DNA from: Candidatus Hodarchaeota archaeon
GTDB lineage: Archaea; Asgardarchaeota; Lokiarchaeia; Sigyniarchaeales; SOKP01
Length of the DNA stretch: 64,000 nt
Reading direction: 5' to 3'
Assembly (NCBI GenBank): GCA_048886685.1
Contig: JBHLKM010000007.1
Location: forward strand, 96,001 to 160,000
In this document: positions 8,288 through 56,404 of the stretch, in pieces
Layout of the letters: each line of letters starts with the position of its first letter
How positions within the stretch are numbered: position 1 is the first letter of the stretch
The notes under the pieces: generated by a model
What the model was told of the DNA's origin: nothing
Databases searched by the model: none
What the model saw: the letters and a program-made list of their open reading frames with translations, nothing else
Position numbers and translations under genes: made by a program

Positions 8288-8299
8288 TTTTTAATAGGT

Positions 8300-9616: not shown

Positions 9617-9686
9617 TAAATAATAAATAGAAAATAATAGATATAATATTAATTAAATATTATTGTAAAATTAAGTTATAGTAGAT

Positions 9687-37748: not shown

Positions 37749-40634
37749 ATGAAGGAAATAAACGAAAGAAAACTGACACCTATGTTAAAGCATTGGTACT
37801 CTATTCGTAAAAGATTTCCTTCAGATTACTTGATTTCCTACCGAATGGGTGATTTCTTCGAGTTTTTCTATGACGATGCTGAAAGAATTTCGAAGCTTCT
37901 AGGAATCACATTGACAAAGAGAGGAGATGTTCCATTGGCTGGAATCCCACACCATTCAGGTCATAATTATTTCAACAATCTTATGAATCTTAATCAAACT
38001 GTAGTAATAGTTGATCAGTTAGAAGATCCTGCAACAGTAAAAGGTCGGATAGTAAAAAGAGGAGTTACTCGAATCTTATCTCCAGGAACTATTATCGAAC
38101 CTAACATGTTAAATGCAAATAGAAATAATTATTTGGCATCGATGATTAAAGAGAGAACTGGTTTTGCAGTTGCGTTTGCTGACATATCAACTGGAGAATT
38201 TTCGACTGTTGAATTTTCTGCTAAAGAGGAGAATCCTCAGGAAAGATTACTTAGTATCTTTTCTCAATATGATCCAGCTGAATTAATTATTCCTCCAGAA
38301 CTCAAGCAAGATGAAAGGTTTTTCCTTATATTAACTGATTTAACAGATGCAATTATAAAAACGTATGAGGAATATGTTTTCAATTATGATGAGGCCTATA
38401 CTATTTTAACACGACATTTCAAGGTTTCTAATCTAGAAGGTTTTGGATTAGAAGGTCGAATATTAGCAATTCAGGCTGCTGGTGGGCTATTAGCTTTTTT
38501 AAAGGAAACGCAGAGAGATATTGTACCAAATATATTTAAGATTAATGTAATTCAAGAGAAAAATATTCTTCATTTAGATTATATTACCCAGAGAAATTTG
38601 GAACTAATTCATTCCTTATGGGAAAAAGGTAAAGATGTTACTTTATATAGCGTATTCAACCACACTCATACACCGATGGGAGCAAGATTGTTGAGAAAAT
38701 TCATTTTACGACCATTAACTAACATTCAGCAAATTAATAACAGATTAAATATAGTTCAGAAGTTTAAGGACGATATCTTCTTAAGATCTGATTTAAGGGA
38801 AGAATTAAAAATATTAGGTGATCTTGAAAGATTTATCAATAAACTAAATTATTCTGGTCGAACAAATGCACGCGATTTAGTCAATATTAAGCACTCATTA
38901 GAAAAAATTCCAAAAATTAAGGAGATTTTAGTCAAAGCGGATATACCTGAAATTTCGCATTTTATTGAGAACATTAGACCCTTTGATAAGATTAAGGGTC
39001 TCATTGAAAATGCAATTAAAGAAAATCCACCAACCAAAATTAGAGAAGGTGATATTATCAAGGATGGCTTTAATGAGAAAGTTGATGATCTGAGAGACAT
39101 TGTTAATAATGGAAAAAAATATATCTTAAGATATGAAGAAGGGCAGAAAAAAAGGTGGAATTTAACTTCAGGTTTAAAAGTGGGGTATAACAATATTCTA
39201 GGGTATTATATTGAAATAACCTTAAGAACTTTACAAATAATATCCAAAGTACCCGAGGATTATGTAGAAAGAGCAACTTTAAAGAATGCTAAAAGATTTA
39301 CCACAGAGGAGTTGAAAGCATTAGAAGAAAAAATTGTGAATGCTGAAGAACAAGTCGGTAATTTAGAATTTGAGATTTTTAATGAAATACGTGATAAGGT
39401 AGAAAAAGAAACAGAAAATATTCTTGAAACTGCTAGAAATATAGCAATTATAGATGTTCTAGCTTGTTTTGCTGAAATTGCCGAGAAATATGATTACTGC
39501 AGACCAATTGTTAATGACGATTCAAAAATAATTATTAAGGAGGGAAGACATCCTGTAGTCGAACAATTGAATATCACTGAGCACTTCATTCCTAACGATT
39601 GCTACTTAGATAATGAAACTGATCAATTATTAATTATAACCGGTCCGAATATGGCAGGTAAAAGTACTTATCTCAGACAAGTAGCCTTAATTTGTATAAT
39701 AGCACAAATGGGGTGCTTTGTTCCAGCAAAATCTGCCACGATTGGAATAATCGATCAAATTTTTACACGTATAGGAGCTTCAGATGATCTGGCAAGAAAA
39801 TTAAGTACGTTTATGATAGAGATGACTGAAACAGCTAAAATTTTAAATTACGCCACCCCAAAAAGTCTAATAATTATAGATGAACTGGGCAGAGGAACTA
39901 GTACAAGTGATGGGCAAAGTATCGCAATGGCTACTCTTGAAAAACTTAATCAACTAAATATTAAGACGCTTTTTAGTACTCATTATCACCAGTTAACAGA
40001 AATAAATTTACCAAGAGTAAAAAATTACCATTTGGATATAATTGAGAATGATGATGGTAGTATTAACTTTGTAAGAAAATTAAGACCTGGTAGCACTGAT
40101 AAATCCTATGGGATTCATATCGCAAAATTAGCAGGTATTCCTGATGATGTTATTATAAGAGCATTTGAGCTTCTTGAACAAATAGAAGAAAAGGATCCTT
40201 TCAGAACGACAGTTAGAGATAATGGTAATAGCATTTCATCAGGTAAAATTTATAATAAATTTATAAATGGTAAAAAACATAAACTTGAAAAATTAAACTT
40301 CGAATTAAATTTAGTTAAAGAGAAATTGGTAAATTCAAATGAGGAATTAACTAGAAAAGAAAATGAGTTAGATAGAAAGAAAAAAGAGATGAAGGAATTA
40401 GATACAAAAATAAAAACAAGTAAAGCAAAAGCTGTTCAAAGTAAAGTTTCAGGTAAGAAAAAATATGTACAAACAATCCTATTTGAACCTTCTAAAAAGA
40501 AAGAAAGTAAAATGAATGAGTACATATTCAATTTAGTCAATAATCTTAAAGAATTAGAAATAGATAAACTATCGCCCGATAATTTGAAAGAAAAAATAAC
40601 TGAACTCAAAAAGAAATTAGAGAAACATATTTAA
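37749..40634 (+). CDS. mutS: DNA mismatch repair protein MutS (MutS1)
   Basis: TPM, MGDFFEFF mismatch motif, ITGPNMAGKSTYLRQ, STFMIEM, DELGRGT, STHYH, SYGIHIAKLAG. Confidence 0.97.
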   Translation: MKEINERKLTPMLKHWYSIRKRFPSDYLISYRMGDFFEFFYDDAERISKLLGITLTKRGDVPLAGIPHHSGHNYFNNLMNLNQTVVIVDQLEDPATVKGRIVKRGVTRILSPGTIIEPNMLNANRNNYLASMIKERTGFAVAFADISTGEFSTVEFSAKEENPQERLLSIFSQYDPAELIIPPELKQDERFFLILTDLTDAIIKTYEEYVFNYDEAYTILTRHFKVSNLEGFGLEGRILAIQAAGGLLAFLKETQRDIVPNIFKINVIQEKNILHLDYITQRNLELIHSLWEKGKDVTLYSVFNHTHTPMGARLLRKFILRPLTNIQQINNRLNIVQKFKDDIFLRSDLREELKILGDLERFINKLNYSGRTNARDLVNIKHSLEKIPKIKEILVKADIPEISHFIENIRPFDKIKGLIENAIKENPPTKIREGDIIKDGFNEKVDDLRDIVNNGKKYILRYEEGQKKRWNLTSGLKVGYNNILGYYIEITLRTLQIISKVPEDYVERATLKNAKRFTTEELKALEEKIVNAEEQVGNLEFEIFNEIRDKVEKETENILETARNIAIIDVLACFAEIAEKYDYCRPIVNDDSKIIIKEGRHPVVEQLNITEHFIPNDCYLDNETDQLLIITGPNMAGKSTYLRQVALICIIAQMGCFVPAKSATIGIIDQIFTRIGASDDLARKLSTFMIEMTETAKILNYATPKSLIIIDELGRGTSTSDGQSIAMATLEKLNQLNIKTLFSTHYHQLTEINLPRVKNYHLDIIENDDGSINFVRKLRPGSTDKSYGIHIAKLAGIPDDVIIRAFELLEQIEEKDPFRTTVRDNGNSISSGKIYNKFINGKKHKLEKLNFELNLVKEKLVNSNEELTRKENELDRKKKEMKELDTKIKTSKAKAVQSKVSGKKKYVQTILFEPSKKKESKMNEYIFNLVNNLKELEIDKLSPDNLKEKITELKKKLEKHI

Positions 40635-41542
40635 CCTAAAACTACGGGAATGATAAACACAATCGTAGTTAGATATATATAATATATTGATATTATTGAA
40701 ACTAGTATTATTCGATAAAGATTCTTCCTTTCTTCGGTTTCAATGTTTTCTAAGAAGGTTATTAACAATAAAGCTATGAACATTAAATGAGAAGGTTGTA
40801 AAGCTTTCCAGATAACTGAATCAATTATTAAAAATCCATGAACTTCAGCATCACTATGACCCCAATTTTTTACCATTTGGAAGAAATACTCAGGGAAAAT
40901 CATGTATGGGATGCATATAATTGCAAAAGGGATTAGATAATAGATAAGATCTTTAAATTTAATTTTTCTAATTATTAATAATACAGGCACAAATAGAATC
41001 GCAGTTATTTTAAAAGTAGCAAGAGTAAAGAGAATACCCGCAATCCATTTTTGATCTTTTTCTAAATATATAAATGAATAAAATAAAAGAAATACAATTA
41101 AGAAATTTACATTGTTATAATAGGCATCGATACTATACCCGATAGTACCGAATACATAAAAAATGAGCAAATCTTTTTTATTTTTAAATACTTTAGGCGA
41201 TTCTTTTATTACTATAATCATTAAAATCAATCTTAAGGCATCCCAAACGTACACACCTATTAGTCCTTCGGTAGGAATTATCCATATATAGAAAAAAAGA
41301 TAATACCAAAAATATAGGTAATAAGGAGGCCAATCGGATATAGTTATTGGATCATAAAAATCTATAAGACCGTTTTCCATACCCTCTAACAAGATTTTAA
41401 AATCAATATCTTTTGTCTCTTTTATCCAAGGGGAAATTTCAAAGAAATATAAAATGATTCTCAGTATAATAAAAAAAATTGTGATTCCTGTAAAAATATA
41501 AATGAAATACTTGTGAAGGGGATATTCTTTCTCTGTACTCAT
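40631..41542 (-). CDS. Polytopic membrane protein, GT87/DUF2029 (GT-C) glycosyltransferase-like
   Basis: Multiple TM helices; luminal DF after TM1, YYNNVN, AGILFTLATFK pattern of the GT87 family. Confidence 0.6.
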   Translation of the reverse strand: MSTEKEYPLHKYFIYIFTGITIFFIILRIILYFFEISPWIKETKDIDFKILLEGMENGLIDFYDPITISDWPPYYLYFWYYLFFYIWIIPTEGLIGVYVWDALRLILMIIVIKESPKVFKNKKDLLIFYVFGTIGYSIDAYYNNVNFLIVFLLFYSFIYLEKDQKWIAGILFTLATFKITAILFVPVLLIIRKIKFKDLIYYLIPFAIICIPYMIFPEYFFQMVKNWGHSDAEVHGFLIIDSVIWKALQPSHLMFIALLLITFLENIETEERKNLYRIILVSIISIYYIYLTTIVFIIPVVLG

Positions 41543-41744
41543 ATCTATTTATTAATTTCTTGTTTTTATTGCTATGTAAATTACTTTTATATATTAAAGG
41601 AAATTTAAAAGACTTACTTATAGGCTTTTGAGTTAGATTTATTTAAACCTTAATAGAGTATTATTTTAAATTTGATTGTAATGTGAAATATATTAGGGTT
41701 AAAGAATTATAAATTCCTTGAAGATAAATTGTAAAAATTATAAT

Positions 41745-43595
41745 ATGACTGTGAAAGTAGCTAAAATAAGAAAGATATTAGATGCTGAAAAAATAGCAGC
41801 AGGGGAAGTGGTTGAAAGACCTGCCAATATAGTGAAAGAACTTATTGAAAATAGTATTGATGCTGGAGCTAAAGAAATAAGGGTGATTGTCAGAAAAGCA
41901 GGTAAAACTTTAATTCAAGTAATTGATGATGGGATAGGTATTTCACCTGAAGATATTGAAGTTGCATTTGAAAGGCATACCAGTAGTAAAATTAGGAGTA
42001 TTGAAGATCTTGATACGCTTTCTACTTTAGGCTTTAGAGGTGAGGCACTTGCGAGCATTGCTGCCGTGAGTCAAGTTGAGATTATTTCAAGAACCAGCCA
42101 GAATGAAAGAGGTGTACAATTAAATATAGAAGGGGGAAAATTCAAAGAAAAAAAGGAAGTATCATGTCAAGTTGGAACAAATATCAGGGTCAAAAATATT
42201 TTTTATAATATCCCTGCACGGCAGAAATTCTTAAAGAAAGATTCTACAGAACTTAGCCATATTACAGATATTATGCAGAGATACTCGTTGGCATTCCCTA
42301 AACTCCATTTTATTTATCGTCATAATGATTTGGATATTTTAAACTGTCCTGCAAATAATGATTTAAACACAACAGTATTCCATATCTATGGGAGAAATAT
42401 CGTTAGATTTATGGAATCTGTAGAATTTAGTGAAAAAGATCCTTTTATTAAAATATCAGGATTATTAGGACATCCACAAATTGCTAAAAAAAGTAGAAAT
42501 TATTCAAGTTTATTCCTCAATAATCGTTATGTTATTAGTGATGTCTTATTTAGAGCAATAAAGGAAGCTTATGAAGGAACCTTGATGATAAATAGATATC
42601 CTTTTTTTGTATTATTCCTGGAACTTGATCCAACAGTTGTAGACTTTAATGTTCATCCAAAGAAACTCCATGTTAGATTTGAAAAAGAAGAAGCGCTATA
42701 TAATAAGGTGTACAATATAATACGAGGTTTTATCGAAGAAAGATTCATAAATAAAGAAGCAAAGTATATTTCAACTGAGTTGGAGGATTTTGGCCCAAAG
42801 AGTAAAAAAGAATTAGGTGTTTTTGAAGAACCTATAGAAGAAATAAAGGAAATAATAGTAGATAAAAAAGGAGTAATTGAAGATAGTGTTCAATTGGATT
42901 TAATGGATCAAGTAGTTGAAAAAAAATTGGGGAAAAAATATTTGCCTGATTCTTATATTAGAGGGAAATACATAATTTCAAAGGATTTTCCAAAGATTCG
43001 TCTAATTTCTTATACAGGCCAATTACAAAATAAAAAATATGTTGTTTTAGAAGGAATTAACGAGAATAATGAAGAGGGAATCTTTATTTTAGACCAACAT
43101 GCTGCGTCAGAAAGGATAAAGAAAGAAGAACTTTTGAATGCTTATGATAGTGCTAAATTAAGTAAGCAGAAATTAATCCAACCACTAAAAATTGATGTGT
43201 CACCTAGTGATAAGATATTTATGGAAGATAATTTAAACGAAATTAAGAAACTTGGATTTAATTTTGAATATTTCGGAGGTAATACTTTTATTTTAAGAGA
43301 AATTCCTACGATAATGAATAAAATTCCTGATATTAGTGTTATTAAAGGAATTGTTAGTGATATTACTGAAATTGGAAAGGATAAAAGCTTTAAAGAAGTA
43401 AAAGAAGAAATTATCAACTATCTAGCTTGTCATAAATCTGTAAGAGGTGGGGATGACTTATCCTTAAAGGATATACGCAGTCTGCTTATCGATTTAGCAG
43501 CATGTAAAGATTCTTATCATTGTGCTCATGGAAGACCCACATTAAGATTTCTTTCATATAATGAATTAGATAAATTATTTAAAAGAACAGGTTAA
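41745..43595 (+). CDS. mutL: DNA mismatch repair endonuclease MutL
   Basis: IAAGEVVERP, KELIENSIDA, GFRGEALASI, DFNVHP.K, DQHAASERIKKE, ACH, CAHGRP; ATG at 41745 preferred over TTG at 41718. Confidence 0.97.
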   Translation: MTVKVAKIRKILDAEKIAAGEVVERPANIVKELIENSIDAGAKEIRVIVRKAGKTLIQVIDDGIGISPEDIEVAFERHTSSKIRSIEDLDTLSTLGFRGEALASIAAVSQVEIISRTSQNERGVQLNIEGGKFKEKKEVSCQVGTNIRVKNIFYNIPARQKFLKKDSTELSHITDIMQRYSLAFPKLHFIYRHNDLDILNCPANNDLNTTVFHIYGRNIVRFMESVEFSEKDPFIKISGLLGHPQIAKKSRNYSSLFLNNRYVISDVLFRAIKEAYEGTLMINRYPFFVLFLELDPTVVDFNVHPKKLHVRFEKEEALYNKVYNIIRGFIEERFINKEAKYISTELEDFGPKSKKELGVFEEPIEEIKEIIVDKKGVIEDSVQLDLMDQVVEKKLGKKYLPDSYIRGKYIISKDFPKIRLISYTGQLQNKKYVVLEGINENNEEGIFILDQHAASERIKKEELLNAYDSAKLSKQKLIQPLKIDVSPSDKIFMEDNLNEIKKLGFNFEYFGGNTFILREIPTIMNKIPDISVIKGIVSDITEIGKDKSFKEVKEEIINYLACHKSVRGGDDLSLKDIRSLLIDLAACKDSYHCAHGRPTLRFLSYNELDKLFKRTG

Positions 43596-43614
43596 AAAAA
43601 CAGAAATTTTTTAT

Positions 43615-43881
43615 TTATGCTTTTGAGAAAGCAATAGCTTCTATACCTTGAATACCATCAACTTGACCAAAAAATTCTTCAAGCTTATCTGTACCACCCC
43701 ATTCTTCAGGATATCGCACCCTTACTCTCGCTTTTTGCAAACCAAAAGCAACGGGAAGCACATCATAATGCTCGAGAGTACAAGTCTCAGGTAATATTTC
43801 CTTTAATTTACCTACAAAAGCTTCAAAATTCACATCTGTATCTTCTGGAATAACATCAATTAAAGCTATAAATTCTCCCAT
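43615..43881 (-). CDS. ef1b: Translation elongation factor aEF-1beta
   Basis: PVAFGL, GGTD.LEE; start moved to ATG 43881 because the upstream part of the track ORF overlaps a separate gene. Confidence 0.88.
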   Translation of the reverse strand: MGEFIALIDVIPEDTDVNFEAFVGKLKEILPETCTLEHYDVLPVAFGLQKARVRVRYPEEWGGTDKLEEFFGQVDGIQGIEAIAFSKA

Positions 43882-43907
43882 TATAATCATATCCTCTATT
43901 AAATTTT

Positions 43908-44084
43908 CTAAGGTCCCTCGAAATCGCATTTTAAACAACGAAATGAGTTTCCCGATTCCCTACAGCGTTCACATCTCCAGATTGTGACATCTCCACATTG
44001 AGGGCAAGGAAAATGTACAGCAGATTCGTAAGGAGTTATCGGCCTGCCACAGCCAAAGCAATTATTTCTTTTGTAAGCCGACAT
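43908..44084 (-). CDS. HVO_2753/DUF1610-like zinc-ribbon protein (58 aa, not in ORF track)
   Basis: Manual translation MSAYKRNNCFGCGRPITPYESAVHFPCPQCGDVTIWRCERCRESGNSFRCLKCDFEGP*; four CxxC motifs, ends FEGP, conserved position upstream of aEF-1beta. Confidence 0.92.
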   Translation of the reverse strand: MSAYKRNNCFGCGRPITPYESAVHFPCPQCGDVTIWRCERCRESGNSFRCLKCDFEGP

Positions 44085-44314
44085 TGCTATATTATTAAAA
44101 TTGAAATTTAGATAATAAAATATATAATAACTTTAATTGTTTTCTAATTTCAATATCTCTTTAGATTTAAACGAGAAATCTTAATATGATCAACATTTTA
44201 AAATTAACTTAATTATTAACAAAGAAAATATAAATCAAAATTTATATTAATCAACACCCTAGTTTGCATATAAATTAAATGATTTAATTTCCACTTACCT
44301 TAGAGTAGATTATA

Positions 44315-44845
44315 ATGCCAGAAAATAAAGTAAAAAAATATTTCCAACTTATTGAAGCATGGGCATGGTGTGATATCTGTGAAGATATGATTTCATTGAA
44401 TATAGATAAAAACGAGATTATTAGTGGTCTTGAAATGGGTATTTATACAAAAGAATATAAGCATGCCAATCCTAATCCTGATCTAGAAGACACAGATGAT
44501 GTTTCTGGACAAGAACATACGATTTATGTCTATATCAATGATAATTATGACATTACAGGAGTTAAATCCTTTTTTGGTGAATCTCCTACTACTGAAGAAA
44601 TTGGAGCAGAAACAGCAGAAGCGGGTGGTGAAGTGAGAATTCCCGTAGTTGTAAAGGAAATTCCTCCTATGGCTGTACAGTTAGGAATGCTTACAAAGGA
44701 CCAATTTAAAGTCCTTAAAATTTGTGATGGTATGAATACAATTGAGGAAGTAGCTTCAATTGCTCAAATAAGCGAAAATGAAATTGAAAAAATGATGGAC
44801 CAGCTCCGAAAAAAAGGATTAGTAAGAGTCATTAAAAGAACTTAA
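44315..44845 (+). CDS. CxxC/His-domain protein with C-terminal winged helix
   Basis: WCDIC...YKH...EHTIYVYIN; C-terminal DGMNTIEEVASIAQISENEIEKMMDQLRKKGLV. Confidence 0.75.
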   Translation: MPENKVKKYFQLIEAWAWCDICEDMISLNIDKNEIISGLEMGIYTKEYKHANPNPDLEDTDDVSGQEHTIYVYINDNYDITGVKSFFGESPTTEEIGAETAEAGGEVRIPVVVKEIPPMAVQLGMLTKDQFKVLKICDGMNTIEEVASIAQISENEIEKMMDQLRKKGLVRVIKRT

Positions 44846-44904
44846 AATCTTTATAAATAGTTAAAGTTTAGCTGAGATAATCAAATTTCAAAAGGTATTT
44901 CTAT

Positions 44905-45459
44905 CTACTTGTTAAAGTTCCGAGTATTGTAAACCAGTTCAATTTGTCTATTTAATATTGAAGTTAGAAAATAAAAAGCTTCATTTACATTAAGACCTGT
45001 TTTTGAAGATGTTGTGAAATATTTTAGAAATTTATGTTTTTCCATTAGATTTAAGATTTCTTCTTCTCTAACAAGAATTTTATCTTCCAAATCGGCTTTT
45101 GTTCCTATTAAAACCATTGGTATAGTTTTGTTTTGTTGTTCTATAAGATCAACCCAATCATCAATCCTTTCTAAAAATCGAGGATTTTTTGTTAAATCAA
45201 ACAATACTAATGCGCCCTTAGCACCCATAACAAAACTATCTAAGAGAAATCTAAAGCGCTCTTGTCCAGAAAAATCCCAGATTTGAAGTGAAGTAGAAGC
45301 ACCAGTCGCAAAAGTAAGGACTTTATTGAAAATCTCAACACCAATCGTCATCTTAGTATCAAACTTAAATCGATTTTCTATATATCTATGCAAGAGAGTA
45401 GTCTTTCCAACTCCACCATCCCCCGCAACGATAATTTTAAATGTAGATTTAGCTGGCAT
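44905..45459 (-). CDS. Rab-like small GTPase
   Basis: GDGGVGKT, TIGVE, WDFSGQERF, GTKAD, SSKTG; no C-terminal Cys motif. Confidence 0.95.
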   Translation of the reverse strand: MPAKSTFKIIVAGDGGVGKTTLLHRYIENRFKFDTKMTIGVEIFNKVLTFATGASTSLQIWDFSGQERFRFLLDSFVMGAKGALVLFDLTKNPRFLERIDDWVDLIEQQNKTIPMVLIGTKADLEDKILVREEEILNLMEKHKFLKYFTTSSKTGLNVNEAFYFLTSILNRQIELVYNTRNFNK

Positions 45460-46476
45460 TTAGTTGGACCTCTGCTTATTAACTTTTTTTCGTATTATTT
45501 TTAATTCTTTTTCACTTTCAAAAAGTAAATCCAAATGTGCAAAAGCCATTTCATTTGAGATTTTTCCTTTTTTTAAATTACTTGCTATCTCATTTAGTAA
45601 ATAAACGGGCGGAAAATATTGAAGATGAAGATCATATAATATCGAAATATATTTTTCACCATTAATCTGAAAATTGAAAATGATATCATTAACACACGAG
45701 CCACTTAGCGTTTCTAAATCTAGTAATGTTCTTACTTTTTTCAAAGATACTGGTCCGTTGCTTAGAAGAGACATTATTTCTTTATATTCCTTAGAAATTA
45801 GTATCTGCAAACCTTGTTTTATTGCCAAAGTTAAGTCACCTTGACCAGAAAAAATTGTCTCTTTAAAATCTTGTAAAGTCTCATTTGCTTTACTTAAATA
45901 AGATTCTTTAATTGGGGAATATTTTGGATTGTTTGAGATTTTTTCAATAGTCTGCTTATGTGGGATTTTGAAAATTATGAAATCTCTTACTAAAAAATAA
46001 CATTCAAAAAAAGTTTCATTTAACCACCGAGATTTGACTAAATTTGTTTTAATGAGTGGTAAAATCACTAATTGAAAATTATGTTCTTCAAATTCAGGAT
46101 ATTCAGAAATAAGCCTTTCAACTAATTCATTCGAATTAATTGGTCCCTCAGATAAAATTTTTAAAACTTCAGTACGAATTGGTTCGTTATAAATGGATGC
46201 TAATGCCTCATATTCTGACATATGGATAAGAGATGTGAATTCTTTCGCTTTCTTTTTAGCTGTTAATAAATCTTGATAAACAATTTCATCTCTCACAGAA
46301 AGATTTGCATCTAAAAACAGCATGATCGCATGTTCCGGTTTACCATGTATGAATATATATTCAAATGGAAAATATTTCTTATCATCTACAATATTAACTG
46401 GGATTTCTAAATCAATTACTTTTTTACAGAATGAACAATGCACTCTAACTTTTTTCATTTTTACCACATTCTTCAC
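45460..46476 (-). CDS. CxxC/His-domain protein with winged-helix-like repeats
   Basis: HCSFC...IHGKPEHAIMLFLD.N..VR; IRTEVLKILSEGPINSNEL and IMSLLSNGPVSLKK wHTH-like starts; start may be ATG 46458. Confidence 0.7.
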   Translation of the reverse strand: MKNVVKMKKVRVHCSFCKKVIDLEIPVNIVDDKKYFPFEYIFIHGKPEHAIMLFLDANLSVRDEIVYQDLLTAKKKAKEFTSLIHMSEYEALASIYNEPIRTEVLKILSEGPINSNELVERLISEYPEFEEHNFQLVILPLIKTNLVKSRWLNETFFECYFLVRDFIIFKIPHKQTIEKISNNPKYSPIKESYLSKANETLQDFKETIFSGQGDLTLAIKQGLQILISKEYKEIMSLLSNGPVSLKKVRTLLDLETLSGSCVNDIIFNFQINGEKYISILYDLHLQYFPPVYLLNEIASNLKKGKISNEMAFAHLDLLFESEKELKIIRKKVNKQRSN

Positions 46477-49400
46477 CTACTTTTTATCCTTCATTTTAAA
46501 TTCCGCTCTATATTTATCTTTAAAGGGAATTTTAGAAGGTAAATACTGATTATTAATGAGATTTTTTATGATATTTTCCCGACTTGGCTCATATATTTTA
46601 TCAAATTTTTGATTTTTAAATTTCTTTTTTACAGTTCTTATTTTCCTCTGAAATTTACTCAACCCTAAATATCTCTTATTAATAAAAACACCTAATGTTA
46701 CTAAAGCTGCTATAGATATTATACTGATAACTGAGATCGTGAGAATTGTTTCAAACAATGATGTATATACAATTAAAATTATAATTTCATCTTCTCCATA
46801 TGGATTAGAGACCACAATTTTGATTTGATGGTTGGATCTAAAAGGGTTTAAATTCAAGCTATTTAAGTCTAATTGATAAGAATCATTTGAGACGGGATGT
46901 AACAGTTGTGATTTTCCATTATATTCACAAGAAACATTAAATTCCGTTGATATACAATTATGGCTTTCATCAAAAACTGTAAAATCGACTTTATTGCTTT
47001 GCCCTTCCTTAAATTTAAATGTTAAAGAAGAGATTTGGATGTTAATGTCTAATGGAAATACGGTTATAATCAAATCTCTTAATTGAGGTTCAAAATTTTG
47101 GTTAGTTGCTAGTATCTGAATTAAATAACTCTTTGATTCTAAATTCTGTGTATTTATGGTGGAATAGAACTCAGTACCATTCCATTTAAAAGTACCAATG
47201 ATGTCTCCAACAAGGCTTAGAGAGCTATTAATTAAATTTTGTCCATCTGACACATACAAACAGGATATATTTACCCTATCCCCTCTTATGATTTCAATAG
47301 GTTCAGGATTCAGTAATAGTAATTGTGTTTCTGCTGGTATTATCATAACATAAGCTACAATAAAAGCAGTCTCATAGCCTATATGGCTTAATTCAATATA
47401 AATTGGATAAGAATCAACTGATAATCCAGAACTATTAAATAAGATTAAAAAACCATTTGAGAACGGAGTGCAATTGTAAGTTGACGACCAGATTATGCTA
47501 ATATTTGCTCCATCGATTAGTTCCCCAGAACTCTCAATTGTGTAATTTACTACTAAATTAAAATTATGATTCGGGTGAATTTGGATGATGCTTTCATTTA
47601 CTTGAGCTCTAGTTGGAACCGGATTAATTTTGAGTGTAATCGAATCTGTTGTACTTCCATAACCTGTTTTATTAGAAGAAAATGTTATAGAATAAAACTC
47701 TGGTATTCCAAATGTAGGGAGATTAAAAGTGGATAAATTAAATTCCCAGGTACCGTTATTAAAGTCGTTAATTGTGTAATAATTTTGCCAGTCTGATGAG
47801 ATATTAGCGGGCCAATAATAACTTCCCGTATTAAGTCCCGTAACATTTACCTGAACCTTAATAAAACTATTTCCCTCAACTTCGAGTATACCACATGGTA
47901 ATTGCAGGGCTAAAGGTTCAGCAATTATTTTAACTTCGATTAAATCTTTCATTTCTTGAGACTGATAATAATCCTTTGACGCATTAAAGGAAACATAATA
48001 GTCACCTAATTCTAATGAGCTTGTATCAAGATCGATAATGTAAATTCCTGAACCTAAATATATTGCATATCCCTCAGTTCCATAACTCGTATTATAAGTT
48101 ATAGATGCAAAATCGATGTAAGTACCAATGTCAATGTCTGTAAAATTAACCTTTACTAATAGAGGTGCTCCTACCATCGTTTCAAAATAAGATTTTATAG
48201 CCTTCAGACTGGTATTATGCCAGACAGTAAAATGAAACCTTTCAAAACCGATTTTATCTCTCATAATAGAAGACTCATTGTTAGTCCACTCCAAGAGAAC
48301 TTCATACTCTCCGACAATCATGTTCTGATCAACGGTATAATCACCAAAAGCAACAATTTGGGATGCAGGCGATGTTTCATTTAAGAAAGTTGACCCATTT
48401 GGATATTGAATAGTGCAACGGACAATAGTATCATCTAAAGGAAATGTATCGTTCAAAGTAGTGTGAATCTGAAACAGATCGGCATACATTAGAATCGAAC
48501 TATCTTCATAAGATGTGCCATTCCAAACAGCGGTATTTCCTCCGGTAATATAATCAATACTTGTAGCTTCAATATTCCATAATCCTTGATTTATAATTTC
48601 GGTAGGAATTGTTATTGTCTTCGATCCAATACCCGTTCCTAAACAACTCTCAGTTTTATTAACCCCAAAACCATCGTATATACTTACAATATCCCAATCC
48701 ATTGGTTTCTTGATTTGTATTAGAGTGCTACTATAGAGTAAGGGATTTGAGATAATAAAATTGGTTTCCCAGCCAATTTGTAGATCAATTGAATAATAAC
48801 TTCCTTCTACTCCCATAAAAGTTGAATTAAAGGATTTAACTAAATATGAATTAATAGATATATTCTTAATTTGGATATCAATTATATTTGTAAGATTTTG
48901 GTATATTGTAAATTCAATATTAGTCGTAGTGTTTGTAATTCTTTCAACATCAATAAAGGAATACCCACGACCATAAGATAAATTATAATAGGTATAATTT
49001 AAACTGGAATGGAAATCTAAAGCCTTCAATAAGTAAGGTTTATTTGGCATTGTCCATATTTCGTATTTAATATTATCGATTTGAATGAATTGCTGTGCCG
49101 CAGTCAGACTAAGATCAGATAAAGCATATAGTCCCGTTTTGATTGAAACATTCCCAGGTAGAATTTGACCATACATAGAAGGATTATATATCAATTTTGT
49201 GTTGGTCCAAGCATTCTTTGTTAACTCTGAAAAACTAATGGTTTTATTTACCTCTATTCCATTAATTACAATGGCCAAATAAAGAGTGAGGTTTTCAGGT
49301 GGACTGGGAACATTGGAATCAAAGAAGTAATCTATAGAAAATGAAGCTAAACTATTATCATTAAAAGGTTGGGCAATAGAAAAGTTTTGCTGGTGAACGC

Positions 49401-49851
49401 CTTGATCGTGTTTTGAGACGGATCCTGCACTGATTTCAATTTCAACATATCCACCAGATTGCCAACCATTATTTGTAAATCTGGTTGGATTATTACAGGC
49501 GTATATCCAATTAGTGTAATTTAATGGAAAATCACCATTTAAAACTTTGTCTTTCTTTATTGAAATTCCTTCATAAGATATTGTTACATTTTGTGAATTC
49601 CATCCCTCAACTAAGGTAAAATGGACATTTGTAGGTAAGGAAGATGGAAAAAAAGTATTCAATGTGGTAGCGAACTGATTTATTAATAATGGTTTTGAAT
49701 TTGGAGGGGATGTTGATTGAATAGGGATTTCAAAATTTTTAACTAAATTATTGGAATCTTTTCTATTATTATATTCATTAGAATGAAATGAGATTGATAA
49801 TAAAAAGACTAATATCAATATATTCAACAATAGAGATTTTCGGATCTTCAT
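46477..49851 (-). CDS. Large single-pass cell-surface protein with beta-sandwich (Ig-like) repeats
   Basis: N-terminal signal/anchor, S/T/N/I-rich beta-strand repeats with many N-x-S/T sequons, C-terminal TM (ILTISVISIISIAALVTLGVFI) and a basic cytoplasmic tail of about 60 aa. Confidence 0.8.
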   Translation of the reverse strand: MKIRKSLLLNILILVFLLSISFHSNEYNNRKDSNNLVKNFEIPIQSTSPPNSKPLLINQFATTLNTFFPSSLPTNVHFTLVEGWNSQNVTISYEGISIKKDKVLNGDFPLNYTNWIYACNNPTRFTNNGWQSGGYVEIEISAGSVSKHDQGVHQQNFSIAQPFNDNSLASFSIDYFFDSNVPSPPENLTLYLAIVINGIEVNKTISFSELTKNAWTNTKLIYNPSMYGQILPGNVSIKTGLYALSDLSLTAAQQFIQIDNIKYEIWTMPNKPYLLKALDFHSSLNYTYYNLSYGRGYSFIDVERITNTTTNIEFTIYQNLTNIIDIQIKNISINSYLVKSFNSTFMGVEGSYYSIDLQIGWETNFIISNPLLYSSTLIQIKKPMDWDIVSIYDGFGVNKTESCLGTGIGSKTITIPTEIINQGLWNIEATSIDYITGGNTAVWNGTSYEDSSILMYADLFQIHTTLNDTFPLDDTIVRCTIQYPNGSTFLNETSPASQIVAFGDYTVDQNMIVGEYEVLLEWTNNESSIMRDKIGFERFHFTVWHNTSLKAIKSYFETMVGAPLLVKVNFTDIDIGTYIDFASITYNTSYGTEGYAIYLGSGIYIIDLDTSSLELGDYYVSFNASKDYYQSQEMKDLIEVKIIAEPLALQLPCGILEVEGNSFIKVQVNVTGLNTGSYYWPANISSDWQNYYTINDFNNGTWEFNLSTFNLPTFGIPEFYSITFSSNKTGYGSTTDSITLKINPVPTRAQVNESIIQIHPNHNFNLVVNYTIESSGELIDGANISIIWSSTYNCTPFSNGFLILFNSSGLSVDSYPIYIELSHIGYETAFIVAYVMIIPAETQLLLLNPEPIEIIRGDRVNISCLYVSDGQNLINSSLSLVGDIIGTFKWNGTEFYSTINTQNLESKSYLIQILATNQNFEPQLRDLIITVFPLDINIQISSLTFKFKEGQSNKVDFTVFDESHNCISTEFNVSCEYNGKSQLLHPVSNDSYQLDLNSLNLNPFRSNHQIKIVVSNPYGEDEIIILIVYTSLFETILTISVISIISIAALVTLGVFINKRYLGLSKFQRKIRTVKKKFKNQKFDKIYEPSRENIIKNLINNQYLPSKIPFKDKYRAEFKMKDKK

Positions 49852-50060
49852 TTTATTCCTTTTAATTTTAGATTTAAATTACTTTTTTAATTATTGAATT
49901 AATTTCTAATTTAAATAATACCTCAACCACAAAACCGAAATAGATATTTTCAGTTTTCACTCGATAGTAAAATCAAATAAAAATGCTATATATAAATTTA
50001 AGTTTACCTAACAAAGATAGTTATTAATATGGATATTCTCACTTTTTTAAATAATTTCAA

Positions 50061-50243
50061 TTAATTATTTATGATTCTCTTTCCTTCCTTAAAACCTAGG
50101 TGTAAAGCCTTAATGTTAAAATCTGCATCAGGTAACCATTCCTTAATAACTTCTTCCTACTCTTCAATTTGAATAAATGGGAATCTGCCTAAGGGAATTG
50201 CAAATCCAAGCATAATGATATTAACTTGTTGATTATGTTTAAA
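50061..50243 (-). pseudogene. Decayed duplicate of the iorB 3' end
   Basis: Translates FKHNQQVNIIMLGFAIPLGRFPFIQIEE*EEVIKEWLPDADFNIKALHLGFKEGKRIINN*, collinear with the IorB C-terminus at 51819-52010; in-frame TAG at 50157-50159; no 5' part. Confidence 0.85.
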
Positions 50244-50278
50244 ATAAGGATTAGTCAGTGTAATTAAAAGAACATAAT

Positions 50279-51415
50279 TTAGCGAGTAATAATTAATTCT
50301 TCCATATGTTCTCTCTTTTTTTTTATTTTCGGTTTCTCAAAGTGTTCTCTGGCGGGTTCCAATAAATCTATAAGTCTCTCCGAAATACTATTTTTTAAGT
50401 CAAGAGGATGTATTTTTTTATTTAGATACGCATCCTCCAATTCTTGATATGAATTAAACTCCATATCTCCACCGAATTTTGCTGGTTTTTTAACTTGAAA
50501 ATAAGAGCCTTTTTCTCTGAAAATTATTGATTTTGTCCAATCTAGTATTGGATTAAACACTGCATTTCCTTCAGGACAAAAAGCGGATCCTATTTTTTCT
50601 TTTATTTCATCAGGATTATCATGAATAAATACAGCAGAATTGGGCAATGATTTACTCATTTTCATCTGAGACCATAACTCTCGCAATTCTTCATCATCTT
50701 TAATAGGCCAGATTGGTGGTTTTTGTAGACCCAAAATCAAATGATTATGAACACATATAGGTTTAATTGTTTCACCATTAGTATCAACAAGGTTATTCTT
50801 CTTCATTTTTAAAGCAACATCCCTCGTAATTACATGGGCTTTGCGTTGATCATAACCTGCATGAGCAAAATTGATATTTTGAATGAATATGTCGGCAACC
50901 TGCATGGCAGGATAAAGTAATTTCGCAAAATCCACATTTTCTCCTTGTTTCCTTCCCATAATTGTGATGCTTCTTTGCATTCGGCTTAAAGTAGTGTTTT
51001 TACATACATCAATAACAGTTTCCCAATATTCATCATTATTATGATATAATTCTGTACCAAGGGTAAATTTTACCTTGTTTGGGTCTGCCCCTACACAAAG
51101 TAACCCTGCTCTAAGCCCTTCTTTAAAGTATCCAACCGCAATTTCTCGAATTTTTTCCATATCTCCTCCTAATTTATCATTAATCCAGCTATGCCAATCT
51201 GCTAGAAAAATGGAGCAAGAAATTCCAGCATCAATGAAATCCTTAATTTTAGCCATACAAATAAGTCCAGTTCCTAAATGAACCTTACCTGATATCTCAA
51301 AACCTATGTAATGACTTAGAGGAACTCCTGTTTCTAGAAGATGTTTTAAATCTTCTTCTGTTAATATTTCTTCAGTACCTCGTTTAATTAAGTCAATTTT
51401 CTCGTGGATATCCAT
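50279..51415 (-). CDS. tyrS: Tyrosine--tRNA ligase (archaeal type)
   Basis: YIGFEISGKVHLG, ADWHSWINDK, YPAMQVAD, DQRKAH, KMSKS, HPLDLK. Confidence 0.95.
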   Translation of the reverse strand: MDIHEKIDLIKRGTEEILTEEDLKHLLETGVPLSHYIGFEISGKVHLGTGLICMAKIKDFIDAGISCSIFLADWHSWINDKLGGDMEKIREIAVGYFKEGLRAGLLCVGADPNKVKFTLGTELYHNNDEYWETVIDVCKNTTLSRMQRSITIMGRKQGENVDFAKLLYPAMQVADIFIQNINFAHAGYDQRKAHVITRDVALKMKKNNLVDTNGETIKPICVHNHLILGLQKPPIWPIKDDEELRELWSQMKMSKSLPNSAVFIHDNPDEIKEKIGSAFCPEGNAVFNPILDWTKSIIFREKGSYFQVKKPAKFGGDMEFNSYQELEDAYLNKKIHPLDLKNSISERLIDLLEPAREHFEKPKIKKKREHMEELIITR

Positions 51416-51446
51416 GTGAAAACATAACCAACTAAGCCTTATTTAA

Positions 51447-51833
51447 TTTATCAAAAAATGTGTTAAGAGTGTATATAATGTTCAAGAAATAGTTAATCTA
51501 CATTTAAATCTAAAAGGTGTAAAAGTAGCTAAAAGGACTGTATATGTTTATTTAAAAGATTGGGATATTGATAGAATCCCCAAAGATGAATTCTATAGGA
51601 ATAAAATAGTAAGGGGGGGAAAAAAAGGTTGGAGTTTAAAAGAAATTTGGATCAACATTGATGAAGGATTAGGATTTACTAAGAATAGTTGGGATAAAAA
51701 TAGATGCAGATTCTTTAAAAGAATATTTAAAGATGATGTACTGGTTAAGAGTAAGGAAGGAAGTATAACAGAAAAAATAGAGCATGCTTATGAACCATTA
51801 GAAGCAAAAAAATGGAGGTTATTTTCTATTTGA
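51447..51833 (+). pseudogene. Start-less 128-codon reading frame with an HTH-like segment (probable gene remnant)
   Basis: Stop-free frame from 51447 to TGA at 51831 with no in-frame ATG/GTG/TTG; contains LNLKGVKVAKRTVYVYLKDW. Confidence 0.5.
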
Positions 51834-52472
51834 AATGCTTTTTTCTCCTTCTTTTAATCCGAGTTGCAAGGCCTTAATGTTTATATCAGGATCCCGAAGC
51901 CATTCTTTAATAACTTCTTCATAGTATTCAAGATCTATGAATGGAAGTTTACCTGTTGGGATAGCAAAACCAAGCATGATGAGATTAACATACTGATTTG
52001 AGTTAAATTGTTTAATTGACAAACTAGTAGCATTTAAAAAGTATATTTCCTTTGTTATTTGATTTAAAGTTTTTTCAATTTCTTCGAGAGAGGGATATTT
52101 CTCAAAATTAGCTGTTATCATTACTCCCGGAATTGTCCGATTGTTTATAACAAATGAAGTTTTTGAGGACGCAAATATTCCATGTCTTAAAGCTTCAATC
52201 GGTTCAAAACAGATATAAAGATCACCATCACCATAACTAATAAGCGGGGACTGCAGATTTTTTCTATCATTATTGAGAATGTTTCGCTGATAACGGGTAT
52301 GGCTCATAATAGCTCCCTCTCGTTGTGCAAGTCCATGAGATTCACTTCCAAAGACTCTTTCAACTCCAGACTTTTGGGCGGCAAATTCTATTAGTCTTTT
52401 AAGCGTTATCACTCCTTGACCGGCGGTTCCAGCTATGACAATATTGATTATATCCGTTTCTTTAAATTTCAC
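51819..52472 (-). CDS. iorB: Indolepyruvate:ferredoxin oxidoreductase beta subunit
   Basis: GTAGQGVI, SESHGLAQREG, FEPIEALR, NLIMLG; GTG at 52472 overlapping the iorA stop is preferred over the track start 52553. Confidence 0.9.
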   Translation of the reverse strand: MKFKETDIINIVIAGTAGQGVITLKRLIEFAAQKSGVERVFGSESHGLAQREGAIMSHTRYQRNILNNDRKNLQSPLISYGDGDLYICFEPIEALRHGIFASSKTSFVINNRTIPGVMITANFEKYPSLEEIEKTLNQITKEIYFLNATSLSIKQFNSNQYVNLIMLGFAIPTGKLPFIDLEYYEEVIKEWLRDPDINIKALQLGLKEGEKSISNRK

Positions 52473-54405
52473 GAAATGGCACCTCCTCACCAAATAAACG
52501 TATAATTGATTTTCTAATTGCCCCATTTGGGCAAATTTCATAACACACACCACATTTTATGCATCGATCTTGATCAATTTGCATTTCTTCCACTCCTTCA
52601 GTATCAACTCTTCTAATTGCCGGACAGCTCAAAATCCTTGCACATTCATAGCACATCGAGCAGCCGCCAATGTAATAAGAAACATCTTGAACTTTTTCGC
52701 CATGTTCTTGAAGAGATTTAATTTGTGACATTCTCCATCGATGAGCTTGTAGAGCACACTCTCGTTTAATGATAATAACTTTTAATCCGTTAGTTTCTAA
52801 AGCTTCTTCAATTGTTTTTGTTAATTTTTTAGGATTATAAGAATCTTCTACTCTTAACCAAGGTACACCAATCGATTTACAAATTTTTTCAATTGAAAAT
52901 CCTTGATTGATTAGAAATCGAAGTACATCATCTTGATGCCCGGTCATTGCTGTCCAAGAGTTTTCAAAAATAATAAATAATAGATTTGAATTGTATCCAA
53001 CAGCTTCCGCTAATGGTGCCATACCCGTGTGGAAGAAGGTGGAATCCCCTATCATTGCTAAAACTTTTTGGTTTGTTTTTGTAGACATTCCGATTGCAGC
53101 ACTAATCCCTCCAGACATACATATTACTAAGTCAGAGCACTGCTGAGGTGGAAAAAATGACATCACATAACACCCGATATCCCCAGAAATTATAGTATTT
53201 TCTAAATGATTTGTTGCTTTCAATATCGAATAGAGTGTAGCTCGTTCAGGACATCCTGCACAAAAGGTAGGGAATCTACTTGGGATTATTTCTTTGTACG
53301 AATTGTAATAATGCATTGCTTTCCTCATTTGCTCACTAGGTTGTTTATTAAAAATCTTAGCTAAACAATCTGCAACTAATCCAGTAGAAAATTCGTTATA
53401 CTTAGGAAAATATTTTTGGCCTAAAATTTCAACATCTATTTTCTGATAATGAGCAATTTCAGCAATTTTCATCTCCAAAAATGGTTCCAATTCTTCAATA
53501 ATAACTACTTTCTCAAGATTTTGCATATAACTAGCTATTTGGTTGTAATTTAATGGATAAATCATTCCAAGCTTTAATATAGGAACATCATTTAATTTTA
53601 ATTGATTAAGTGCCTCCATAGTATAGCCAAAAGGCATTCCACTCGTTATTATACCCACTTTATTATCTCCCAGAATAATTCTATTTAATTCTATTTCTGG
53701 AATGATTTCTCTGAGTTTTTCAATTCTTTCATATAACCGAATGTGATTGTTGATGGCGTGTGGTGGCAATGAATTGAATTTAGGAATATTTCTAATAAAT
53801 TCTCCACGTTTCTTACCTTTTACTAATGGGCTTAATTCTACAAAGCCTCTTGAATGAGCACTTCTGGTTGATGTACGAACATTCATTACCAAGTCAAACT
53901 TTTCTGACAGATCAAATGCTAACTTTACCCAATCTTTACATTCTTGAGGTGTATGCGGTTCGATGGTAGGAAGATGTAGCATCCAGGCATAGAAACGTTC
54001 ATTCTGTTCTTGGTGAGAGCCTAGTGAACCCGGATCTGAACCAACTGATATTACCATTCCTCCGGGATTTGGCCCATTTAATGCAATTACACTCAGAGCA
54101 TCACTTGCGACATTCAACCCTACATGTTTCATAGGATTAAAACTCCGACAACCTGTCCAAGCAACTCCAGCACAGGCAGAGGTTGCAACTGCTTCGTTCA
54201 CAGCCCAATGATGTACTAAATATTCGCCAAATTCAGGAAAATCCCTAATTACTTGATGGAAATATTCTCCAATATCACTTGTAGGAGTACCTGGATATTG
54301 TGAGACATAGGAAACGCCTGCTTCCAGGCATCCGCGTACAAGTGCTTCATTTCCGAGCATCAATACTTTTCCTTCATTGTCGATAAAACGAGTATCTTTT
54401 ATCAT
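52462..54405 (-). CDS. iorA: Indolepyruvate:ferredoxin oxidoreductase alpha subunit
   Basis: LGNEALVRG, YPGTPTS, MKHVGLNVASD, FCAGCP, GDIGC, IGDSTFFHTG, TAMTGHQ, C-terminal ferredoxin. Confidence 0.95.
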   Translation of the reverse strand: MIKDTRFIDNEGKVLMLGNEALVRGCLEAGVSYVSQYPGTPTSDIGEYFHQVIRDFPEFGEYLVHHWAVNEAVATSACAGVAWTGCRSFNPMKHVGLNVASDALSVIALNGPNPGGMVISVGSDPGSLGSHQEQNERFYAWMLHLPTIEPHTPQECKDWVKLAFDLSEKFDLVMNVRTSTRSAHSRGFVELSPLVKGKKRGEFIRNIPKFNSLPPHAINNHIRLYERIEKLREIIPEIELNRIILGDNKVGIITSGMPFGYTMEALNQLKLNDVPILKLGMIYPLNYNQIASYMQNLEKVVIIEELEPFLEMKIAEIAHYQKIDVEILGQKYFPKYNEFSTGLVADCLAKIFNKQPSEQMRKAMHYYNSYKEIIPSRFPTFCAGCPERATLYSILKATNHLENTIISGDIGCYVMSFFPPQQCSDLVICMSGGISAAIGMSTKTNQKVLAMIGDSTFFHTGMAPLAEAVGYNSNLLFIIFENSWTAMTGHQDDVLRFLINQGFSIEKICKSIGVPWLRVEDSYNPKKLTKTIEEALETNGLKVIIIKRECALQAHRWRMSQIKSLQEHGEKVQDVSYYIGGCSMCYECARILSCPAIRRVDTEGVEEMQIDQDRCIKCGVCYEICPNGAIRKSIIRLFGEEVPFREI

Positions 54406-54580
54406 ATTATTACCCTATTTAACAATTATTTTACTTAAAGCCAAGTTATAAAAAAAAAGTTATCATTATTTGAGATTTTAAAATCTTCTTAAAAAACATT
54501 AAACCTAAAGCTTTAGATGTTTTTAGAAGTAATATAAATCTTCATAAGAAAAATCAAAAATTATACATTTAGAAAAAGGA

Positions 54581-55117: not shown

Positions 55118-55190
55118 CCAATGTTCGATTAAACAAACTATATATTATTATTGAATTAAAAATTTTTAATTAAAACGATTTATGCTTTTT

Positions 55191-55622: not shown

Positions 55623-55776
55623 CTTTACACTAATCCAGCAAATTTAACTATTTAATAATTGTGATAAATTGTTTATTAAATTATTTTTTCCTAGCAAAAA
55701 AATTCATTTTTTTCTATATTTGAGCTAAAAATTGATAATCCAAATATAAATTTAATCTAAAAATAAGACCTTACTA

Positions 55777-56064: not shown

Positions 56065-56404
56065 TATAATATTAGATTTGATAATATTTAAATCTGAACA
56101 TTAATTTTGGAAAATTGAATATAATAGGTAATCTTGATCATTCAAATTATTAAATTCAATTATTTATATATAGTGATTCAGATAAAATTGATCGATTGAA
56201 ACATTGAATGATTAAACTATTATCAATATGAACAAAATACAGAGAAAAATATCATCATTGGAAAAATAAAAATCTCTGTAATAAAATATAACTTCACTTG
56301 GAAGTTTTACTTTAGCAATTTTCTGATAAATTTAAAAAATTTACCGTATTTACTTAACCATCAAAAACTATGGAATAAAATTATATTTTGAAATTTTTGT
56401 CAAA

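Follow-up and report, generated by a model that had tools for sequence, protein, structure and literature searches.

The window analysed here, a 64,000-nucleotide stretch of contig JBHLKM010000007.1 (positions 96,001 to 160,000 of the forward strand; G000:C7:96001-160000 in our notation), belongs to a Candidatus Hodarchaeota archaeon, and contains a cassette of three closely spaced minus-strand genes that may link a surface protein to a small GTPase. The genome (G000) is an Asgard genome of 4.4 Mb with ~29% GC, and homologues of the window proteins carry the names of Promethearchaeota or Lokiarchaeota metagenome-assembled genomes (MAGs). As described in a first-pass annotation of the window, the cassette consists of open reading frames (ORFs) of 1124, 338 and 184 amino acids (aa), which encode a large surface protein, a soluble protein designated MID and a Rab-like GTPase, respectively (Table 1). 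The annotation had also regarded the three genes as free of gaps. This is exact for the junction between MID and the GTPase gene, where a TAA stop codon directly abuts an ATG start codon (45460/45459), and together with the Shine-Dalgarno-like site inside MID this arrangement implies coupled translation of both genes. For the large gene and MID, in contrast, a TAG stop codon abutting a GTG codon (46477/46476) is the reading of the longest ORFs only. Translation of MID likely starts at the GTG at 46467, because its orthologues start with MVKTKK, the copy of the protein in the database comprises 335 aa and an AGGTGA motif lies 5 nt upstream of this codon. This start would leave a 9-nt spacer after the stop codon of the large gene, and even so the two genes are predicted to be tightly coupled. 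The AT-rich region upstream of the large gene, which contains a TTTATATATA stretch, is a probable promoter region.

Table 1. Positions of the cassette genes and associated features in the window.
Feature	Position	Strand	Remarks
Rab-like GTPase gene	44905..45459	-	184 aa, ORF
MID gene	45460..46476	-	338 aa as longest ORF; 335 aa from probable start
Large surface-protein gene	46477..49851	-	1124 aa, ORF
GAGGT, Shine-Dalgarno-like site	45468..45472	-	inside 3' end of MID, 8 nt ahead of GTPase ATG
AGGTGA, Shine-Dalgarno-like site	46473..46478	-	overlaps large-gene stop codon; 5 nt before GTG 46467
Transmembrane helix of large protein (about residues 1031-1058)	46678..46761	-	hydropathy maximum 2.64, windows starting at residues 1021-1041
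Conserved juxtamembrane tail of large protein (residues 1059-1100)	46552..46677	-	core motif [KR]R.[IL].[LMV][ST][KR]FQ[RK].[IV] ... [ST][RK][ED]
N-terminal domain of MID (residues 7-84)	46225..46458	-	model: five strands and two helices, b-b-a-b-b-b-a
Tandem winged-helix module of MID (WH1, 88-172; helical linker; WH2, 229-288)	45613..46215	-	model; common to the paralogous family
Upstream intergenic region	49852..50278	-	427 nt, AT-rich; probable promoter region
Genome-specific segment	44857..54560		~9.7 kb; cassette, tyrS and iorB/iorA-like genes; flanks joined directly in five congeners

The earlier description of the 1124-aa product as an exported protein agrees with the sequence. The protein starts with a hydrophobic, signal-peptide-like N-terminus, contains internal repeats in its ectodomain and possesses a single transmembrane (TM) helix close to its C-terminus, which is followed by a basic cytoplasmic tail of 65-68 aa (22 Lys or Arg vs. 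6 Asp or Glu). It has 37 N-x-S/T sequons, twice the number of 18 expected from composition, and every one of them resides in the ectodomain; the density of 3.3 sequons per 100 aa is five times the genome mean of 0.67. No Pfam family was detected in a profile search of this protein.

Orthologues of MID are present in four GTDB genomes, namely G000, G029, G061 and G275, and the large gene lies adjacent in all four of them (31-35% identity), the pair being kept down to about 32% identity. Orthologues of the large protein share 59-70% identity in MAGs and 31-34% in G029 and G061. The tail is better conserved than the ectodomain in nine of 11 comparisons, e.g. 36 vs. 32% identity for G029 and 33 vs. 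17% for G275. In the latter case, the partner of MID has a different ectodomain (MG4/Ig), which is essentially unrelated to that of the window protein, yet the tail motif is kept, and the best BLAST segment between both proteins consists of TM helix and tail (E 7e-6). Related basic juxtamembrane motifs occur in all partner surface proteins of the MID paralogues described below, each adaptor subfamily having its own variant.

MID belongs to no Pfam or NCBIfam family and is soluble, as judged from the lack of any hydrophobic segment. An AlphaFold model based on an alignment of 32 sequences (predicted local distance difference test score, pLDDT, 90.1; predicted template modelling score, pTM, 0.81) consists of an N-terminal domain, a first winged helix (WH1), a long helical linker, a second winged helix (WH2) and C-terminal helices. 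In the N-terminal domain, strands 1 and 2 form a hairpin that carries a CxxC motif, and an HGxPxH motif is placed at the hairpin of strands 3 and 4. Among 49 family members the four candidate ligands are well conserved (C14 in 48, C17 in 47, H44 in 49 and H49 in 42 sequences), as are D56 and R62 (42-49 sequences), which makes zinc binding by this C2H2-type domain plausible. The CxxC...H...H domain and the winged helix-turn-helix (wHTH) segments that had been noticed earlier in MID were thus confirmed, the two winged helices being modelled at high confidence. The N-terminal domain folded alone yielded a pLDDT of 86, and a fold search with it gave no significant neighbour (best Z 4.8, Foldseek E >= 1.1). 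Its weak neighbours are mostly PH, PTB and FERM-F3 domains (Z 3.5-4.8, below significance); the top 50 matches include no longin or roadblock chain, a result that does not exclude these folds. The order of secondary structure elements is compatible with a minimal longin domain, which proves nothing. The domain constitutes a family of its own; Asgard proteins contain it by itself or joined to a wHTH or GerE domain. Approximately ten further ORFs in G000 display its pattern (C-x2-C ... [FY]P[FV].[YH] ... HG.P.H ... D ... R), as stand-alone proteins of ~90 aa or fused to a C-terminal wHTH or other domains; one of them, a 734-aa protein (contig C11, 164382-166586) with the domain at its N-terminus, adjoins a 417-aa paralogue of the MID module. 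The 176-aa product of the gene neighbouring the cassette (44315-44845; P0163) was also considered as a carrier of this domain and rejected, as a domain hidden Markov model built without P0163 misses this protein at E <= 1.

Residues 47-322 of MID show homology to Asgard proteins of ~370 aa, which form a large family (hhalign probability 99.9, E 1.8e-34, 265 columns). A MID profile search matches these proteins at positions of about 75-317, and members of the family are found among the Atlas structure neighbours of MID with TM-scores of 0.57-0.58. The alignment begins only at residue 47: The ~120-aa N-terminal domain of the paralogues is absent from MID, which carries the ~75-aa C2H2-type beta domain in its place. 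Genus-wide, in ~35 fetched loci, the paralogue genes start 0 or -1 nt downstream of genes for single-TM proteins of 1200-1900 aa. In G000, paralogues follow with 0 nt spacing after large secreted single-TM proteins of 1462 and 1461 aa on contig 6 and of 745 aa on contig 20, and these partners contain Laminin_G_3, Ig-like and CarboxypepD_reg domains. Moreover, P0264 (1351 aa) and two giant G000 proteins combine ectodomain, TM helix, tail and a MID-type module in a single polypeptide. Since the same module is fused behind TM helix and tail in these cases, it is reasonable to assume by the Rosetta stone argument that the split surface proteins and adaptors act together at the cytoplasmic face of the membrane. 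The fused sister genes, and the tail that is kept in G275 where the ectodomain is replaced, provide good support for the view that the large surface protein and MID likewise work as one unit.

The two giants are encoded in tandem on contig 20, outside the window (48751-56784, plus strand, 2677 aa; 56946-64922, plus strand, 2658 aa), and share the layout of ectodomain, one TM helix, basic tail motif, ~120-aa domain (PIGLIFMRWDERIGTE...) and tandem winged-helix module; a gene for a 325-aa Ras-superfamily GTPase lies 1.1 kb beyond them on the opposite strand. The genus-g1 loci L030-L047 and the locus L021 (G000:C6:166000-183000) contain arrays of two or three cassettes, each composed of a 1200-1900-aa surface protein and a ~370-aa adaptor. 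The first adaptor gene is followed by a convergent gene for an Arf-like GTPase of ~345 aa and the last one by a RuBisCO-like gene, and 15 of the 18 loci fetched from genus g1 keep this arrangement. A further genus-wide cassette (L022, G000:C20:7000-15000, and L003-L019) encodes a single-TM protein (745 aa in G000; tail FKYPP.VRKIRKLKK), a 375-aa MID paralogue and a protein of 500-650 aa, which is not a GTPase. This third protein starts with a TrmB winged helix, contains a coiled coil and is conserved at its C-terminus (EIAGMGS..EEHVKLFAAVLEDVW).

In metagenomes, the large protein has longer homologues (P0149-P0152; 1223-1460 aa), whose ectodomains are 35-45% identical to its own and whose long cytoplasmic extension terminates in a segment resembling a winged helix. 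They were considered as fusions of the large protein with MID, but this was rejected, as BLASTP of MID against their C-termini revealed no similarity; real fusions are known only for the paralogous module. The extension may represent an alternative fused cytoplasmic partner. In G061, the orthologue of the large gene (L029:6969-10189, plus strand) is broken into frames of 943 and 112 aa, which could reflect a pseudogene, a frameshift or an assembly error. Congeners without MID orthologues display weak DNA matches (63-65% identity; G004:C24:20363-20955 and G022:C27:156573-158204) to the part of the large gene coding for residues ~284-629. These matches may represent other surface proteins with related ectodomain modules.

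The winged helices raise the possibility that MID is a membrane-sequestered transcription regulator. That is, the tail would hold MID and, upon an external cue, release it or alter its DNA binding, with the GTPase either modulating this process or being unrelated to it. In fact, a fold search with the whole of MID retrieved nothing other than generic winged helices, which include ArsR-, MarR- and TrmB-type wHTH proteins and match residues 85-170 (Z 7.0-8.1, root-mean-square deviation 2-3 Å over 72-91 residues). The HTH_5 family matches below threshold (13.5 bits vs. a cutoff of 22), and a profile of the paralogues run against PDB sequences retrieved wHTH regulators only, of the ArsR/HlyU type (E 2e-4 to 8e-4). 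However, the fold alone is no proof of DNA binding. Winged helices also serve as protein-protein modules, and the cullin WHB domain, Stn1 and ORC appear in the same match list. In the fused proteins, an ectodomain of 1100-2200 aa precedes the module and keeps it permanently tethered. Finally, mostly hydrophobic residues make up the helix in the recognition position (residues 131-143, FQLVILPLIKTNL), and the net charge of WH1 is -6, features that would suit the binding of a protein more than that of DNA. On these grounds we regard a role as transcription regulator as improbable.

Alternatively, MID and the GTPase could constitute a biogenesis or sorting device that acts on the surface protein, i.e. 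in its targeting, insertion, clustering into protrusions or removal, comparable to eukaryotic cargo adaptors with Arf, Rab or Sar GTPases or to SR-alpha/SR-beta. One translationally coupled adaptor gene per surface-protein gene would provide a stoichiometric, private partner; the highly variable ectodomains combined with a constant tail are reminiscent of cargo-sorting signals, and the GTPase is of the Rab/Arf type. On the other hand, nothing at the locus is related to Sec, the signal recognition particle (SRP), glycosylation or ESCRT, and it would be unusual for every surface protein to have a chaperone of its own. Although no evidence separates this scenario from the receptor-adaptor reading developed below, we consider it rather improbable.

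The third gene of the cassette encodes an intact Rab-like GTPase without lipidation motif, in agreement with the first-pass annotation. The Pfam Ras profile PF00071 matches with E 2.7e-40 (residues 8-167 on profile positions 1-158 of 162) and TIGR00231 with 1.4e-20. Motifs G1 (GDGGVGKT), G3 (DFSGQ), G4 (TKAD) and G5 (SSK), the switch-I threonine (in KMTIGVE) and the catalytic glutamine after DxxG are all present. The segments IGVEI, LQIWDFSGQERF and RFRFL resemble RabF1-3 as judged by eye, and the NCBI name of the orthologues is 'Rab family GTPase'. As the protein has no cysteine at all, it does not match the eukaryotic Rab prenylation motif (CC, CxC or CAAX), and we therefore call it Rab-like rather than a bona fide Rab. 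Having neither a cysteine nor a hydrophobic segment, the GTPase would need a protein partner to reach the membrane. Its orthologues form a sharply bounded group of 68-84% identity, beyond which identities drop to 57% or less.

The order of the three genes, which the first-pass annotation had said would count against its proposal if it were unique to this genome, is shared. In the MAG ACFFE4, large protein, MID and GTPase have consecutive GenBank accessions (MFW9822582, -583 and -584). Two of the three proteins were looked up in each of three further MAGs: large protein and GTPase are two accessions apart in ACFE8N and ACXAC5, and the accessions of MID and GTPase are adjacent in ACXAAI. Contigs of 17120, 16278, 3709 and 151327 bp contain two or three of the orthologues each, as inferred from equal bp values; throughout, gene contexts in metagenomes were deduced from such matching contig sizes and from consecutive accessions. 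Scans of genome and metagenome contigs for related loci, with single-protein and with alignment queries, returned nothing.

At the more distant loci the downstream neighbour of MID differs. In G029, the next gene downstream encodes a P-type ATPase, and a non-orthologous Ras GTPase (37% identity) is encoded 2 kb upstream on the same strand. In G061, a convergent gene for DeoC aldolase comes next, and no GTPase was seen within the contig of the large gene and MID. In G275, a non-orthologous Ras GTPase of 266 aa is encoded on the strand of the large gene, 55 nt upstream of it. The latter protein (L051:12417-13217, minus strand) has a C-terminal extension of ~80 aa that ends in CPYC...CHNC, and this Cys-rich extension is a possible zinc ribbon. 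Overall, a GTPase gene is found within 3 kb at three of the four distant loci, for which we roughly estimate a binomial p of ~0.004 at one GTPase per 55 kb, a post hoc value on four loci. Hence, small GTPases recur beside the adaptor family in varied positions and from varied GTPase lineages, in few independent cases, and this recurrence is better evidence for a connection than conserved gene order alone.

The cassette has a patchy distribution and is not a conserved Asgard trait. Of 398 genomes from the phylum, four contain MID orthologues, and 50 further genomes from the genus of G000 contain none; metagenomes contribute ~14 orthologue clusters at 50% identity. In five congeners, the sequences flanking the genome-specific segment (Table 1) are joined directly: Only a few bases separate the orthologue of the 176-aa gene from that of a second Ras-family GTPase gene, after which comes the AsnC regulator gene. 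For example, positions 2676-9835 of G022:C11 match window positions 37749-44856, and 3 nt later a match to window positions 54561-55136 begins. The tyrS and ior genes match elsewhere in the genomes of the same five congeners. The cassette is an accessory and probably mobile trait. The second GTPase (54581-55117, 178 aa, Pfam E 1.3e-42) is encoded just downstream of the AsnC/Lrp-type regulator on the same strand, and the pair (window 54581-55622) is syntenic in congeners. P0163 was rejected as a part of the module, as its orthologue in the five congeners adjoins this different GTPase without the cassette.

Taking these observations together, we favour the reading that the cassette represents a split receptor-adaptor unit of an Asgard-specific family, which the lineage of the window has extended by a dedicated small GTPase, and we judge the case for it to be about evenly balanced. 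Several points speak against it. The absence of the cassette from the 50 congeners implies that it is dispensable. The abutting, co-directional GTPase is confined to one subclade of 60-84% identity, a range in which ordinary synteny also persists. The loci in G029 and G061 have no orthologous GTPase, their best matches (46-53%) being located on other contigs, and the GTPases near distant loci are not orthologous to the window GTPase. As to MID itself, the fold search with its N-terminal domain yielded no longin, roadblock or other known GTPase-binding fold, and no other G000 ORF with this domain lies near a GTPase.

Some of these points would equally be explained if only the surface protein and MID formed a functional unit, the Rab-like GTPase being a lineage-specific passenger that is kept by a compact operon and recent ancestry. 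The P-type ATPase and DeoC genes that take the downstream position in G029 and G061 fit this explanation, as does the location of the closest GTPases elsewhere in these two genomes and the general synteny at the divergence of the subclade. With ~80 Ras-superfamily ORFs in the 4.4-Mb genome, approximately one per 55 kb, adjacency to a GTPase is not rare in itself and chance neighbours are common. Further, GTPase genes of MK-D1 generally lie outside operons with their own regulators (Tran et al. 2024, PMC10933270). Arguing in the opposite direction, the abutting stop and start codons with the internal Shine-Dalgarno site imply coupled translation with MID, Ras-family GTPases recur in varied positions near the distant orthologous loci, and the paralogous cassette retains an Arf-like GTPase as its neighbour. 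A mere passenger role of the GTPase is unlikely in our view, and we regard the link of the GTPase to the surface protein/MID pair as moderately supported.

According to the receptor-adaptor reading, the 1124-aa protein would be exported, N-glycosylated and anchored by its one TM helix. In the cytoplasm, MID would bind the conserved basic juxtamembrane tail by means of its C2H2 beta domain, its tandem winged helices or both; such binding is suggested by the net charge of -6 of WH1 as opposed to the strongly basic tail. Translational coupling would set MID in a fixed proportion to the surface protein, and the GTPase, devoid of a lipid anchor, would be translated from the same message as MID. If the GTPase docks on MID in one of its nucleotide states, it would be held at the membrane only beside the surface protein. 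In this way, the state or position of the surface protein may be coupled to the GTP/GDP switch, either for outside-in signalling or for inside-out control of clustering, adhesion or turnover. In this scheme the genes, the features of their products, the homologies, the fusions, the conserved tail and the neighbourhoods are observed, whereas we infer every physical contact and any role as guanine nucleotide exchange factor (GEF), GTPase-activating protein (GAP) or effector. The proposal of the first-pass annotation that the tail recruits the GTPase through MID therefore fared differently in its two parts: the connection between tail and MID is the best supported one, through fusions, conservation of the pair and the tail itself, while that to the GTPase has moderate support, the abutting co-directional gene being confined to one subclade.

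Among systems that can be compared, the paralogous Asgard cassettes are closest in composition, as they share the single-pass glycoprotein with its conserved basic juxtamembrane tail, the downstream soluble protein with tandem winged helices, the existence of fused forms and a small GTPase nearby. Apart from the exchanged N-terminal domain of the adaptor, they differ in the GTPase, which is convergent, Arf-like, ~345 aa long and equipped with an N-terminal extension, whereas it is co-directional, abutting, Rab-like and 184 aa long in the window. They also occur genus-wide, in contrast to the rare MID cassette. We found no description of such cassettes in the literature searched, the coverage of which was incomplete. 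Because MID lacks the N-terminal domain of the paralogues and fails the sequence tests for NPRL2 and ArsR-type proteins, we classify the MID cassette as a variant of the paralogous family, in which a Zn-type head is paired with a Rab-like GTPase.

In the part proposed for it, MID resembles the longin GAP proteins of the GATOR1 (NPRL2/NPRL3), FLCN-FNIP and C9orf72-SMCR8 complexes, which are soluble regulators of several domains that reach membranes via a further protein and have a small GTPase as their target. A putative Zn module, HxCx2H...Cx2C, is also present at the N-terminus of FLCN (PMC3438538), and Asgard 'NPRL2-like' longins (Liu et al., bioRxiv 10.1101/2020.10.19.343400) as well as FLCN/SMCR8-like longins (Traffic 2025, PMC12290439) have been described. 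Unlike in these complexes, the GTPase partner here is Rab-like and not Rag-like. Neither MID (E <= 0.1) nor eight of its paralogues (E cutoffs of 0.01-0.05) matched Pfam NPR2/NPR3 or longin families, and the fold searches with MID and with its N-terminal domain alone retrieved no longin, NPRL or FLCN chain. One ESM-Atlas neighbour cluster of the paralogues' N-terminal domain, in which 19% of the members carry Pfam NPR2 (score 0.85), provides a lead only.

By functional analogy only, the arrangement also recalls integrin-talin/kindlin-Rap1 signalling (inside-out and outside-in), in which the short conserved tail of a glycosylated single-pass protein of the adhesion type is recognised by a soluble adaptor, which a Ras-family GTPase in turn controls at the membrane. 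The corresponding contacts are hypothetical here; none of the components showed homology, and neither an NPxY motif nor a significantly scoring FERM domain was detected. A further Asgard operon, which is conserved, encodes a LAMTOR1-like Roadblock protein, a Rab-like GTPase and a DENN-domain protein (bioRxiv 10.1101/2020.10.19.343400). In it, too, the gene of a Rab-like GTPase and those of candidate regulators would form an operon. It differs from the cassette in having neither a membrane receptor nor a winged-helix adaptor, and it occurs in most Asgard lineages whereas the MID cassette is rare.

Extending this to the whole family, one may tentatively envisage, though with some doubt, a modular Asgard system predating eukaryotes. 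Variable glycosylated surface proteins would share a conserved tail, and winged-helix adaptors would each recruit an unlipidated Rab- or Arf-like GTPase. At the locus described here, the GTPase-facing head of the adaptor would be exchangeable, being either the N-terminal domain of the paralogues or the Zn-type, and cassettes would move between lineages. Asgard genomes encode dozens of Ras-superfamily GTPases, almost none of which has an assigned partner, and in the published view the order of genes is seldom of use in identifying one (PMC10933270). The locus and its paralogues offer concrete, clonable triplets, composed of the tail as a peptide, the adaptor of ~335 aa and the GTPase of 184 aa. 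If only the pair of surface protein and MID holds, the result would be an uncharacterised, widespread Asgard family of surface-protein partners together with a conserved tail signal. If the contacts to the GTPase hold as well, they would provide a means of membrane recruitment for unlipidated archaeal GTPases and, in the prokaryotes most closely related to eukaryotes, would physically connect the glycosylated cell surface with a switch in the cytoplasm.

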